DNA of 64,000 nt from Candidatus Parcubacteria bacterium (GCA_026395595.1 JAPLYL010000002.1:44874-108873), one strand, 5' to 3'. Positions 28,931 through 32,770 are shown, numbered from the stretch's first letter. Notes: generated from the letters alone by a model not told the origin. A program made the numbers and translations.

Positions 28931-30670
28931 CTATTTTATTTTTTTTGAAGACATTGTTCTCTGAGACTGGGTTGACCCAAAACCTTGCCACTGGATACGA
29001 GGAGAAGGTTGAGCTGAATAGAATAATCCCGAAACACTTGATTTCTGTGTGCTTATTGTCTGAGTAGTGTTTTTAACAGGGGCTGGCACATAATTAGGAG
29101 TACTGTATTGAGAAGTGCGTGCAAGAACAAGACCGGCTGGTGCTTCACCCCCAAGCAATGGAATTGATATTTCTTTTCTTGCGTAAATATCACCTCCAAA
29201 ACCCACAGCTACTGACACCTGAGTAGACTGGTTTTGTAAGCTAACGGTACGGGGTTCATATTTTCCGCTTACAGATACACCACCACCCACAACAGGTACA
29301 TAACTTCCGCCAACAGAAACAGACGAATCTACTGTATGGGAAACATCTCCTGGAGTATAAGATACAGTAAATGGAGATCCTTCGAGTCCCACTCCTCCAC
29401 CACCAGCAATGAAAAAGTTCAGCCCTTTAGTACTTGCGCGAAAACCGACAGCACCACTCCACCCCATTGCCGTTCCACCTGCTGACAATTCTAAATATTT
29501 CCCAGTTGGGTCGCTCATAATGATCGGATTATTTCCGGCATAGGAATAGCTGTTTAATGCCTGCGGATCCATCAAATACTCTTTTAAGCTTTTCCCTGTA
29601 TTTTGTTTAGTCATCTGTTCGTCTCCAATTGAGAGAAATGATGGATCCTCCGAAATAAACCTCCCTTGTACAGGATTTTGGTATCTCGCACTCATATAAT
29701 TTAATCCGTTTAGGGCATCTTTTTGAGTTCCGGCAAACTGAACTTTTTCGCCTCCGTATCCACCGGATTTACTGTCTATCCTCGTCGCTCCAAATGGCAG
29801 GAAATCCAAAACTTGAGAAAGTGCGCCCGTGCTGTCTGTAATTGCGTTCGTTCCTCCGAGATGGTCGGTGTGAATGTAGTGAACGGTAGAAGTCGCACTT
29901 CCTAACTTCTCTATTGTCGCAACTAACAAGTCGCCCGCAAAGATGTGCTTTGTTGTCGTTCCTGTTGTTCCGATTTGGTTGAAATATTTGTTTAGGAAGT
30001 AGGTCGTTGTATTTCCTTCCGTGAGTTTTACGCGATTGCTGTTCTCGTCATACAAATATGTTCTTGTTGCGGTGCCGTTGCCTTTCGCGCTTTGAGTGAG
30101 CTGATTCCTGTAATTCCACGAATTATTCCATGTTCCATCTGATGTGAGATTTCCGTTGTTATCGTAAGTTTGCGTTGAACCTCCAATCTGAGTCGCCGCA
30201 TGCGGATTCGCGTAATTCGTACCTGCATAAGAGTAAGCTCCGCTCGGAGTACTGCTTGAGATATTTCCTATTGCGGAATATGAGTACGTGTAAACATACG
30301 GGCTGGAAGACGCTACCGAAGCGGTGGCGGTGATTAAACGGTTCAGGTCGTCGTAACTATACGTGACAGTGATGTGTGAAGTGATATCACCTCCGCGTTT
30401 TGAAAGAGGGTTTGCGATTCTGAAATATGGATTGTAGGGGGAAATTTGTGGGTTTGTGAAGAAAACGGGAGATGGTTCAACTAACGGCGAAACTTTTCCG
30501 TAATTCGCAAACCACCAAGCGAACAGCGAGGTATCAATTTCTTTTTTGAAATTTGGAGGATGCGCGATGGTTTGCATGAATTTCGGAAAGTTACCAACAG
30601 TTTTGTTAATTTGAGCTGGACTTCCCAAACCATGGCGGTAATGTCTTATTGTATGAGGAGAAACACACAT
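28931..30670 (-). CDS. Orphan RHS-core C-terminal fragment plus variable C-terminal toxin domain (cassette 3)
   Basis: Contains YD repeats and RHS core-end homology (YSYDDLNRL...HYIHTDHLGGTNAITD...ARYQNPVQGRFISEDP...NNPIIMSDPTGK), then a distinct Gly-rich C-terminal domain. It is near-identical at the DNA level to the other orphan over about 1 kb. Confidence 0.8.
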   Translation of the reverse strand: MCVSPHTIRHYRHGLGSPAQINKTVGNFPKFMQTIAHPPNFKKEIDTSLFAWWFANYGKVSPLVEPSPVFFTNPQISPYNPYFRIANPLSKRGGDITSHITVTYSYDDLNRLITATASVASSSPYVYTYSYSAIGNISSSTPSGAYSYAGTNYANPHAATQIGGSTQTYDNNGNLTSDGTWNNSWNYRNQLTQSAKGNGTATRTYLYDENSNRVKLTEGNTTTYFLNKYFNQIGTTGTTTKHIFAGDLLVATIEKLGSATSTVHYIHTDHLGGTNAITDSTGALSQVLDFLPFGATRIDSKSGGYGGEKVQFAGTQKDALNGLNYMSARYQNPVQGRFISEDPSFLSIGDEQMTKQNTGKSLKEYLMDPQALNSYSYAGNNPIIMSDPTGKYLELSAGGTAMGWSGAVGFRASTKGLNFFIAGGGGVGLEGSPFTVSYTPGDVSHTVDSSVSVGGSYVPVVGGGVSVSGKYEPRTVSLQNQSTQVSVAVGFGGDIYARKEISIPLLGGEAPAGLVLARTSQYSTPNYVPAPVKNTTQTISTQKSSVSGLFYSAQPSPRIQWQGFGSTQSQRTMSSKKIK

Positions 30671-30730
30671 GTAATTAGGTCGATATTACTATGTAAGAAT
30701 AGATGCGGTACATCGACGAGAATAGTCAAA

Positions 30731-31000
30731 CTAGTAGAGGTGATAAATTGTACTGGTTATTAAAATCATTAAACCGAGTGCAAATAGTGCCGCCACGTAA
30801 AAAGTAAATCTTCCCCAAAGAAACAGAGGCCTTTCTATTTTTAATAACCAAGGCTTTTCACCCAAAATTGTCTTTAGAAGATTAATTATTCTCTGAGAAA
30901 AGAAAGAAGCAAAATTTTTGTTGAGAAGAACAAAAATGATACACAGGACTAAGGCAATAATGAATGTAACTATATTATCAATTGAATAATCAGGTTTCAT
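30731..31000 (-). CDS. Small 2-TM membrane protein; putative immunity protein for cassette 2
   Basis: 89 aa, starting 6 nt after the stop of the orphan cassette at 31007. Confidence 0.4.
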   Translation of the reverse strand: MKPDYSIDNIVTFIIALVLCIIFVLLNKNFASFFSQRIINLLKTILGEKPWLLKIERPLFLWGRFTFYVAALFALGLMILITSTIYHLY

Positions 31001-31006
31001 ATAATT

Positions 31007-32770
31007 TTATTGGGAAGAATTAGAGGTTAATGCGCTTTTTAATTGAACCAATGTATTGTGCAATAAATTTAATGTGGCACTTAGGTAATTGGACGTTTTG
31101 TTTGATGTGTTTATCTGATTGGATGTGCGTGCTGTCTGACTACTGTTTGAGACAATTGATGTTCCATTTGATGCTTGTGATTGTGTGTTCTTATATTTTT
31201 CAAAATATTTCATTTTCCCTTCTGCTCCAACACCATAGGACGCGCCAATTTCAGCACCAAATGCCCAACCATTACTTTTTTCCTTATTGTTTGAGAAATC
31301 AAAAGGATCAGATATATTTTGTTGCGCTTCTGTCGAATTATATCTACCTACCCCTGGTGCTATCACATAACCTTTTTGAACTTTATCACTACTGTTGGGA
31401 TTGGCGTCTTTTAATGACCCGTTTGGATCGTATTTTACACTGGCACCATATGACTCACCAGCAGTAAAGAAATAATATGTTCGGTACCCAACTTCAGGGT
31501 CAACTAAATAACCCGCGTTTAGACCAACAGGAAGTTCACCACCAGAAACACTAAACCCGAAATCCCAGACAGATTTTCCACTCGGATCTTTATTCACAAT
31601 CGGATTATCGTTCGCATAACTATATGAGTTCAAACTCTGCGGGTTCTGTAAATTCTGTTTTTTCGGATCACCATTGAATATCGGGTCTTCAGAAATAAAT
31701 CTTCCCTGTGCAGGATTTTGATATCTCGCACTCATATAATTTAACCCATTCAGGGCATCTTTTTGAGTTCCGGCGTACTGAACTTTTTCACCTCCGTATC
31801 CACCGGATTTACTGTCTATCCTTGTTGCTCCAAATGGCATGAAATCCAAAACTTGAGAAAGTGCGCCCGTGCTGTCTGTGATCGCATTCGTTCCACCCAA
31901 GTGATCAGTGTGAATGTAATGAGTTGTTGATGTCGCGCTTCCGAGTTTTTCAATTGTCGCGACTAAGAGGTCGCCGGCGAAGATGTGTTTTGTTGTCGTT
32001 CCAGTTGTGCCGATTTGGTTGAAATATTTGTTTGGGAAATACGTTGTCGTGTTCCCTTCCATTAGTTTAACTCGGTTTCCGTTCTCATCGTACAAATATG
32101 TGCTCGTTGCCGTGTTGGAATTATTAATCGACTGAATTAACTGATTTTTGTAATTCCACGAATTATTCCACGTTCCGTCTGACGTAAGATTTCCGTTGTT
32201 ATCGTAACTTTGGGAAGTTGCTCCGATTGAGGTCGCCGCATGCGGATTCGCGTAATTTGTACCGGCATATGTGTACGCTCCGCTCGGGGTACTGCTTGAG
32301 ATATTTCCGATTGCGGAATACGAGTACGTGTAAGTATACGGGCTGGAAGATGCTACCGAGGCGGTGGCGGTGAGTAAACGGTTCAAGTCGTCATAACTAT
32401 ACGTGACAGTGACGTAAAGAGTGATACCACCTCCGCGTTTTGAAAGAGGGTTTGCGATTCTGAAATATGGATTGTATGGAGAAATTTGGGGGGTTGTGAA
32501 GGAATTGGAAGATGGTTCAACGGTTGGCGAAACTTTTCCATAATTTGCAAACCAACAAGCAAACAGCGGGGGTTCTATTTCTTTTCCGTTTTTTAGCACA
32601 ACGTCACTGAATTGGATAGGTTCTGGAAAGTTACCAACAGTTTCGTTGAATAGGGCTGGACTTAAAACAGCAACGGCGTCATTAATTGATGTATGAGAAG
32701 AATCAAACATTTGATCAGTGGGATACAACGAGGATTCAACAGATTCATTAAATTGAAGAAAGCGGTTCAT
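31007..32770 (-). CDS. Orphan RHS-core C-terminal fragment plus variable C-terminal toxin domain (cassette 2)
   Basis: Same RHS core-end as the other orphan (ARYQNPAQGRFISEDP...NDNPIVNKDPSGK) with its own C-terminal domain. Its ATG overlaps the stop of the upstream small membrane ORF by 4 nt. Confidence 0.8.
   Translation of the reverse strand: MNRFLQFNESVESSLYPTDQMFDSSHTSINDAVAVLSPALFNETVGNFPEPIQFSDVVLKNGKEIEPPLFACWFANYGKVSPTVEPSSNSFTTPQISPYNPYFRIANPLSKRGGGITLYVTVTYSYDDLNRLLTATASVASSSPYTYTYSYSAIGNISSSTPSGAYTYAGTNYANPHAATSIGATSQSYDNNGNLTSDGTWNNSWNYKNQLIQSINNSNTATSTYLYDENGNRVKLMEGNTTTYFPNKYFNQIGTTGTTTKHIFAGDLLVATIEKLGSATSTTHYIHTDHLGGTNAITDSTGALSQVLDFMPFGATRIDSKSGGYGGEKVQYAGTQKDALNGLNYMSARYQNPAQGRFISEDPIFNGDPKKQNLQNPQSLNSYSYANDNPIVNKDPSGKSVWDFGFSVSGGELPVGLNAGYLVDPEVGYRTYYFFTAGESYGASVKYDPNGSLKDANPNSSDKVQKGYVIAPGVGRYNSTEAQQNISDPFDFSNNKEKSNGWAFGAEIGASYGVGAEGKMKYFEKYKNTQSQASNGTSIVSNSSQTARTSNQINTSNKTSNYLSATLNLLHNTLVQLKSALTSNSSQ

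Follow-up and report, generated by a model that had tools for sequence, protein, structure and literature searches.

An array of Rhs/YD toxin genes is found in a 64-kb stretch of DNA, the window, from a metagenome-assembled genome (MAG) of Candidatus Parcubacteria. The array includes one full-length rhs gene (main rhs), two 5'-truncated genes (orphan 1 and orphan 2, which are NTZ13_01060 and NTZ13_01055 on a 189-kb contig) and three small genes (imm1, imm2, and imm3). Open reading frame (ORF) calling places all of them on the minus strand, in the order main rhs, imm1, orphan 1, imm2, orphan 2, imm3. Both orphans open with a pre-core segment of roughly 330 nucleotides (nt), here called X (amino acids (aa) 21-120 of orphan 1 and 1-100 of orphan 2), which precedes a fragment of the Rhs core. 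The nature of X and the exchange of the cassettes that it heads are the subject of this analysis. The features, with window coordinates, are the following.

33199..41787, minus strand: main rhs, 2862 aa (ORF, translation, Pfam and NCBIfam matches)
34711..34753, minus strand: breakpoint of the main gene against its orthologue at locus L008 (sequence alignment)
33880..34584, minus strand: end of the main-gene core, homologous to the orphan core fragments (65-66% DNA, 67-69% aa identity)
33199..33732, minus strand: main toxin tip, 3' of NNPIVKSDSTGL (sequence comparison)
32767..33150, minus strand: imm1, DUF805 membrane protein of 127 aa, presumed immunity gene for the main tip (role from position)
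32411..32737, minus strand: X copy 1, pre-core spacer (ATG at 32708-32710; promoter-like TTCACA-18-TACAAT at 32500..32471)
31007..32770, minus strand: orphan 1 ORF, 587 aa (core fragment 31683..32410; linker and tip 31007..31682)
30731..31000, minus strand: imm2, small membrane protein of 89 aa, presumed immunity gene
30371..30697, minus strand: X copy 2 (ATG at 30668-30670; promoter-like site at 30460..30431)
28931..30670, minus strand: orphan 2 ORF, 579 aa, annotated from M32
29643..30370, 29502..29698 and 28931..29500, minus strand: core fragment, linker and tip of orphan 2
28629..28886, minus strand: imm3, small membrane protein of 85 aa, presumed immunity gene
28576..28610, minus strand: terminator-like hairpin at the array end

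The main protein has a signal-peptide-like N-terminus (read by eye from the sequence, with no predictor behind it), followed by SpvB, FG-GAP, TcdB_toxin_midN, YD repeats, an insert of four immunoglobulin-like (Ig-like) and two Gly_rich_2 domains, the last YD repeats, the Rhs-associated core, and the tip (Pfam, NCBIfam). The YD/RHS repeats match PF05593 (E = 1e-18) and TIGR01643 (E = 1e-10), and the Rhs-associated core matches TIGR03696 at aa 2589-2685 (E = 1.7e-11). The insert of about 900 aa (window 34700-37400, main aa ~1480-2370; Ig-like domains of the Bact_surface_Ig-like type) separates the YD shell from the final ~300 aa of Rhs core and has internal DNA repeats at 34677-37319. Gly_rich_2 is likewise paired with the YD shell in the main Rhs protein of L009, an unrelated metagenome contig.

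Both orphans retain only the last ~270 aa of the core plus a tip, with a TIGR03696 match in each. They align with main aa ~2397-2685 only, and the delivery region is absent. Each has a distinct tip and a distinct small ORF downstream; including the main gene, every tip is followed on its 3' side by a small membrane-protein ORF (127, 89, and 85 aa), and these ORFs are the putative immunity genes. The core-end motif before the tip is NNPIVKSDSTGL in the main gene, DNPIVNKDPSGK in orphan 1, and NNPIIMSDPTGK in orphan 2. The DPxGL consensus of this predicted cleavage motif (PxxxxDPxGL type) is degenerate. An exact-sequence look-up of orphan 1 returned no record, and its AlphaFold2 model from a 20-sequence alignment (mean pLDDT 39, and 29-43 across X) was too poor for any inference.

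With a shift of exactly 2040 nt, the two orphans (29643-30678 and 31683-32718) align with each other ungapped. Over 1040 nt they are 81.8% identical (core part 84%, pre-core about 76%), and the three longest stretches without a mismatch measure 49, 39, and 32 nt. The original prediction, made from the sequence of the window, had put this identity at about 90% over about 1 kb, so that near-identity was overstated. In the core, differences fall 19/16/80 on the three codon positions, with synonymous divergence (dS) 0.745, nonsynonymous divergence (dN) 0.07, and dN/dS 0.09. Resemblance of the orphans to the main core end was also claimed, and pairwise alignment does reveal extended similarity at the DNA level, weaker than claimed. 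Aligned by codons, the shared core as a whole has 65-66% DNA identity; the best BLAST segments reach 72-73% over about 440 nt (main 34151-34584; orphans 29931-30370 and 31971-32410) and, for orphan 2, 75% over an extra 197 nt (29502-29698 against 33737-33933). The linker of orphan 2 is of the main-gene type (75% DNA, 83% aa). Homology between main gene and orphans begins at TVTYSYDDLNR. The longest exact run shared with the main gene measures 32 nt in orphan 1, where it lies at the junction 34584/32410, and 24 nt in orphan 2. Synonymous sites between main and orphan cores are saturated. Their dS > 2 and DNA identity of 65% support a core type in the orphans that is distinct from that of the resident main gene.

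The X segments of both orphans follow the pattern VGNFP...WFANYGKVSP.VEPS...PQISPYNPYFRIANPLSKRGG.IT, after which the core starts from TVTYSYDDLNRL. This opening had been predicted to be absent from the main gene, and that was confirmed in every frame and as DNA. Elsewhere in the window, six-frame and DNA searches found no X (best tblastn E = 0.3, best short-blastn E = 0.018), which rules out frame-shifted or antisense Rhs sequence. A Pfam search with X gave nothing at E <= 0.1. A HMMER scan of 1.84 billion representative proteins retrieved the two window ORFs, P0043 (E = 1e-16), and P0122 (E = 4e-4), and found X inside no full-length protein; the other two listed matches, P0121 and P0123, are repetitive sequences of which only short stretches were matched. 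P0005 and P0047 likewise carry X. Beyond the window, X is known from L008 and otherwise only as the start of short Rhs-end ORFs (P0005, P0043, P0047, and P0122). Degenerate-peptide scans of genome and metagenome contigs gave no confirmed relatives. An exact DNA-motif scan found two JGI contigs with the X copies already reached through P0005 and P0047, and one further match in an unrelated Halieaceae MAG, taken as chance. Word-index protein searches with X were empty; they missed even the proteins of the window and are uninformative.

In its frame X shows nearly neutral evolution. Its differences between the two orphans fall 24/24/23 on the codon positions (dN/dS 0.91), and the variable sites across five loci fall 64/58/62. 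The dN/dS of X is 0.5-0.9, against 0.09 in the adjacent core.

Other orphan cassettes have other pre-core types. One is FN3-like, KKFPFPSYNTPPNFF...ATYRWRMKLW, and is found in P0007 and its kind (L001 3639-4061, L003 3434-3661, and L006 from 3426). Another, IIP[IV]YFF...GIL.I.P...FVWAY, is found in P0014 (L009 8001-9317), where the N-terminus is signal-peptide-like, and in P0004 (L010 653-2455); the core is joined at different points in these two metagenomes. X was compared by eye with the P0007 pre-core and with the signal-peptide-bearing N-termini of P0004 and P0014, and kinship with either was ruled out (BLASTP E >= 12). The N-terminus of P0014 was also compared with the 5' end of its own main gene, as an origin by internal deletion would have it, and no similarity was found. 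The orphan core fragment of L009 starts identically to the resident main gene (31/31 aa; N-terminal 100 aa compared), unlike in the window.

Seven X copies from five loci each begin just after an immunity-type gene. The contexts recovered are those of P0005 (L001/L002), P0043 (L003), P0047 (L006), and P0122 (L004). At every one the order is the same: another Rhs gene's 3' end comes first, small immunity-type gene(s) come next, X starts within <=100 nt, and beyond X lies a truncated core with tip and immunity gene. On its 5' side X adjoins six different tip/immunity modules. Its 5' edge is constant, and the ATG lies in the same column in orphan 1 (M21), orphan 2 (M1), and L003. In L001 the 5' part of X lies outside the ORF, yet is conserved as DNA. 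The 3' junction is variable: TVTYSYDD in orphan 1, orphan 2, and L001, VTQSYDDNGNL in L003 and L006, and VQVLDYYPFG in L004. Relative to L001, the L003/L006 junction has the look of a deletion that joined two YD units in frame; downstream of X the cores of L001 and L003 are 94% identical. The most 5' ATG of orphan 1 overlaps the stop codon of imm1 (ATGA, 32767-32770). This overlap is probably fortuitous, because the 60 nt between that ATG and the X start (32710) are not conserved in orphan 2.

The position of X directly after an immunity gene is what an in-place tandem duplication of the cassette (X, core, tip, and immunity gene) would leave, with the tips replaced later and X formed at the duplication junction from a former downstream flank fused to the core. 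The two orphans agree with such an origin in having an identical X-TVTYSYDD junction and a gap-free alignment at offset 2040. The same junction and the linkage of imm2 with X are also present in the L001 genome, where the gene likewise preceding X is 82.5% identical to imm2 in DNA, so that the junction predates this array. Nor can a duplication be recent, since the orphan cores differ by dS 0.75, and no intact X-bearing downstream gene is found in the window or in protein databases. Duplication in place is unlikely to be how the array arose.

Alternative junctions were looked for in related strains, and one was found. L008 (GCA_026395575.1) is the orthologous locus, with polA 92.5% identical and neighbouring genes syntenic. 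Its main gene equals that of the window at 254/257 nt up to an abrupt break at 34711, beyond which identity falls to 80-88%. From about TVTYSYDD it has an orphan-type (O-type) core, with 75-95% identity to orphan 2 against 51-76% to the main gene in 60-nt windows. In L008/P0003 this O-type core is the working 3' end of a main gene; what precedes it is ordinary Ig-like/YD sequence instead of X, and the linker, tip, and immunity set behind it are different again. Homology to the window returns at the 5' end of X (2991-3209 against 32693-32475, 87.7%), and an IS200/RAYT-like element interrupts the X of L008. A second natural replacement is that of L003 (ENA ERZ27249449) and L006 (JGI 3300014208), which are 99.5% identical over 2286 nt comprising the main end, immunity gene, X, and orphan core. 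Directly after GRFLSQDPSFLEVG, the left breakpoint, the tip and immunity gene become unrelated, and identity is back at 89% at the next orphan pre-core. Linker types are shuffled as well: main and orphan 2 share one type, orphan 1 and the upstream Rhs end of L003 another, and L008 and the upstream Rhs end of L001 a third. Since the L008 main gene breaks from that of the window and then carries an orphan-type core, comparison of these sequences indicates that main genes of the lineage exchange their 3' ends.

Between L008 (1-257) and the window (34968-34712), the main genes are 98.8% identical in their last Ig-like domain, as against 88-92% for housekeeping genes, which suggests a recent exchange of the rhs body between lineages.

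L008 also bears on the parentage of the orphans. The original prediction took them for 5'-truncated copies of a different full-length rhs, of which X would be a domain tail. X is indeed in frame with the core in all copies, and its 3' half has dN/dS 0.4-0.5, with a block, TNPQISPYNP, that varies mostly at third codon positions; the variable domain insert of the main gene stops about 30 aa before the same point, and the P0007 orphan type begins inside a recognisable FN3-like domain. Against these points, the HMMER scan places X only at the N-termini of short Rhs-end ORFs, the substitutions across the whole of X are without codon periodicity, and no Pfam family matches it. In all loci X begins at one constant point behind an immunity-type gene, whereas truncation of an internal domain should leave varying 5' ends. 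The sole full-length gene with an O-type core, that of L008, has at this place Ig-like/YD sequence 81-91% like that of the main gene. Descent of X from a parental domain is therefore improbable. What stands of the claim is the difference in core type; X, being absent from full-length proteins, near-neutral, placed behind immunity genes, and lacking from the L008 main gene, is no evidence of parentage.

Structure was sought in X at the RNA level too. In 28500-33300 no Rfam match was obtained at E <= 1, and X has no conserved RNA structure (RNAalifold -8 kcal/mol, no covariation support; single-sequence fold z-score -0.38), which rules out a structured RNA. These results also bear on whether X is a dedicated recombinase site or the end of a mobile element, as at an integron-like boundary or the end of an insertion sequence. 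X does contain conserved short nucleotide islands (AAGTCCAG and CTGTTGGTAACTT in copy 1), a serine-recombinase remnant adjoins the array, and Y1 transposases adjoin orphans in L008 and L009. The neighbouring recombinase, however, is without a catalytic domain, the Y1 element of L008 cuts X rather than ending with it and has REP-like ends of its own, no hairpin structure is conserved in X, and core breakpoints lie at varied positions, as homologous exchange predicts. Such a site or element end is very improbable here, and the window array lacks the structured boundary site and intact recombinase of integron-like cassettes.

The recombinase remnant is a 375-aa ORF (window 27438-28565, plus strand, convergent on the array) with Recombinase and Zn-ribbon domains and no resolvase catalytic domain; from its domains it looks like a 5'-truncated large serine recombinase. 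It lies in a block (23.8-28.6 kb) together with two uncharacterised ORFs of 267 and 471 aa and a TrmB-like regulator. A 46-nt copy of the polA 5' end occurs at 25779..25734 (91% to L008 3978-4023), the real polA start being at about 23807, and in L008 polA directly follows the Rhs locus. Because of this polA copy and the direct contact of polA with the Rhs locus in L008, the block looks inserted or rearranged. The Y1 transposase genes are IS200/RAYT-like, with REP-like repeats, and adjoin orphan cassettes in two unrelated contigs (L008 2483-2561 and 3211-3978, GGGATCGGGGTCAGGCACTCATTC; L009 7787-9999, GGGGGATAAAGGGGTCAGG).

The feature is real and well delimited, and it is of a kind already known, that of Rhs orphan cassettes and C-terminal displacement. 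The window probably carries an Rhs/YD polymorphic toxin with its C-terminal displacement array, in which X is a non-Rhs spacer or junction scar. In the best explanation a full-length gene for a secreted Rhs protein stands first and two former 3' ends come after it, each with core fragment, tip, and immunity gene. The main gene of the lineage would once have had an O-type core, as that of L008 still has, the M-type end of the present main gene being the newcomer, and orphan 2 and later orphan 1 would be earlier resident ends. In each event an incoming core end with its tip and immunity gene would recombine into the main core, and the old end would be displaced downstream or replaced. The X-TVTYSYDD junction probably arose once and has been copied along with cassettes since. 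We infer that the flanks serve as homology arms: with a donor of the order core, tip, immunity gene, X, and second core fragment, the left crossover would fall in the core and the right one in X or in the core fragment behind it, and every such event would recreate an X-headed orphan. The segments that related genomes exchange would be bounded on the left by the core end and on the right by X or the pre-core of the next cassette. Crossovers of this kind would account for the shared junction, the constant 5' edge of X, the varied upstream modules, and the near-neutral drift.

Several observations weigh against this explanation, or against the part that it gives to X. X cannot be dismissed as junk: the invariant sites cluster (34 runs, with more in shuffles; runs test P < 1e-4), and it has four invariant runs >=5 nt (P = 4e-4), wobble positions included, such as AAGTCCAG and CTGTTGnTAACTT. 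Its frame is open and indel-free in the three copies found without protein searches (orphan 1, orphan 2, and L008), where the chance of an open frame is about 0.1 for orphan 1 against orphan 2 and 0.35 for orphan 1 against L008. Its divergence between orphan 1 and orphan 2, about 0.3 per site, is below the core dS of 0.75. Clustering, open frame, and low divergence may reflect a secondary role as leader or concerted evolution of a homology arm. In addition, recombination in this genome is deduced from sequence comparison; for RecA-type exchange the main-orphan identity is low (65-75%, longest exact runs 32 and 24 nt); and the X copies all come from few related genomes, so that the boundary role is drawn from a handful of comparisons.

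The leader role is compatible with a displacement array and is possible, though rather doubtful. X would then supply a promoter and start codon that express the orphan, and above all the downstream immunity gene, without recombination, the frame staying open for translation through X while its amino acids are free to drift. The conserved ATG column, the open frame, and islands that take in wobble sites are in keeping with this. The predicted promoter TTCACA-18-TACAAT (10/12 matches) lies in the best-conserved block of both window copies of X, its -10 hexamer is kept in 4/5 intact copies, and orphan toxin/immunity pairs of Salmonella use internal promoters and start sites (PMC7043789). Promoter-like matches in the region are, however, not above chance (12 found, 14.5 expected), an open frame would not be unusual by chance (P about 0.03-0.1), in L001 the 5' part of X is conserved despite a stop or frameshift, and no obvious ribosome-binding site precedes the ATG. 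More tentative still is the wider proposal that non-Rhs boundary modules of orphan cassettes in Parcubacteria and other members of the candidate phyla radiation (CPR) are kept by selection, as right homology arm plus expression leader. Such modules would form at least two families, X and at least one other (IIP[IV]YFF...FVWAY).

To return to the displacement array, its repeats had been predicted to permit replacement of the expressed tip. Across genomes, at the population level, this holds; as a switch within the cell it holds weakly. The window array is without the high-identity main-orphan homology of RecA-dependent fusion. Set against a Salmonella pair shown to recombine, with 95% identity over 522 bp (PMC3967940), the 65-75% identity makes main-to-orphan switching by homologous recombination inside this genome look inefficient. 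The best intragenomic partners are orphan 1 and orphan 2 (82-84%), and their recombination would delete the orphan 1 tip and imm2 and leave the expressed tip unchanged.

The tips of the cassettes are 20-36% identical to one another in aa. The main tip is homologous to that of orphan 1 (36%), and it has no match in Pfam or in a PDB sequence search. The main (33199-33732) and orphan 1 (31007-31576) tips form one uncharacterised toxin family, with the motif DPFxF...GWAFG in both, and P0004, P0006, and P0037 are listed with it. The three presumed immunity proteins are all small membrane proteins, which hints that the family may act on membranes.

Among known systems, the main protein is similar to the Tc-toxin TcB/TcC cocoon in its SpvB, FG-GAP, TcdB_toxin_midN, YD shell, and C-terminal hypervariable tip. 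It differs from TcB/TcC in being a single polypeptide with Ig-like and glycine-rich inserts, and no TcA partner is seen in the window. Sequential displacement arrays are also described for type VI secretion (T6SS) effector/immunity genes in Vibrio cholerae (PMC5361080). In the parts of that account considered here, effector/immunity modules are replaced between conserved flanks and orphan immunity genes are left behind, as in the present array, while the toxin scaffold is another one and core-fragment repeats do not figure.

Salmonella orphan Rhs toxin/immunity pairs are expressed from internal promoters and start sites (PMC7043789). The window cassettes are similar in having possible signals of their own upstream of the tip and the immunity gene downstream on the same transcript. 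The Salmonella promoter lies in the conserved core and was shown experimentally, whereas the candidate signals here, read from sequence, lie in a non-Rhs spacer.

The closest likeness is to the Rhs orphan arrays for which C-terminal displacement models were proposed (Poole et al. 2011, PMC3150448; Koskiniemi et al. 2014, PMC3967940), including those of bee-gut bacteria (PMC5727410). In both, 5'-truncated core fragments lie downstream of a full-length rhs, every one of them with a tip and small immunity gene of its own; tips and linkers have been reshuffled from strain to strain, and the core fragment provides homology for exchange. The present array differs from that of Salmonella LT2 in main-orphan identity (65-75% against 95% over 522 bp). 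It differs from the known arrays in its CPR host, in the signal-peptide-like N-terminus and TcB/TcC-like N-terminal region of a main protein for which no PAAR or VgrG domain was matched in Pfam, and in a conserved non-Rhs spacer that precedes each orphan and gives an ATG-started ORF.

For such arrays the pre-core should not be taken as Rhs sequence or as evidence of parentage, and its candidate roles are those of scar, homology arm, and expression leader. Within this genome the repeats are too diverged from the main gene to count as an efficient switch. Rhs displacement arrays are textbook matter in Proteobacteria, and the same cassette-exchange logic is at work in an ultra-small CPR bacterium, with natural swapped ends in its relatives. 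The novelties relative to the known arrays are modest: the CPR host, the conserved non-Rhs boundary spacer, and the clean natural end replacements in related contigs.

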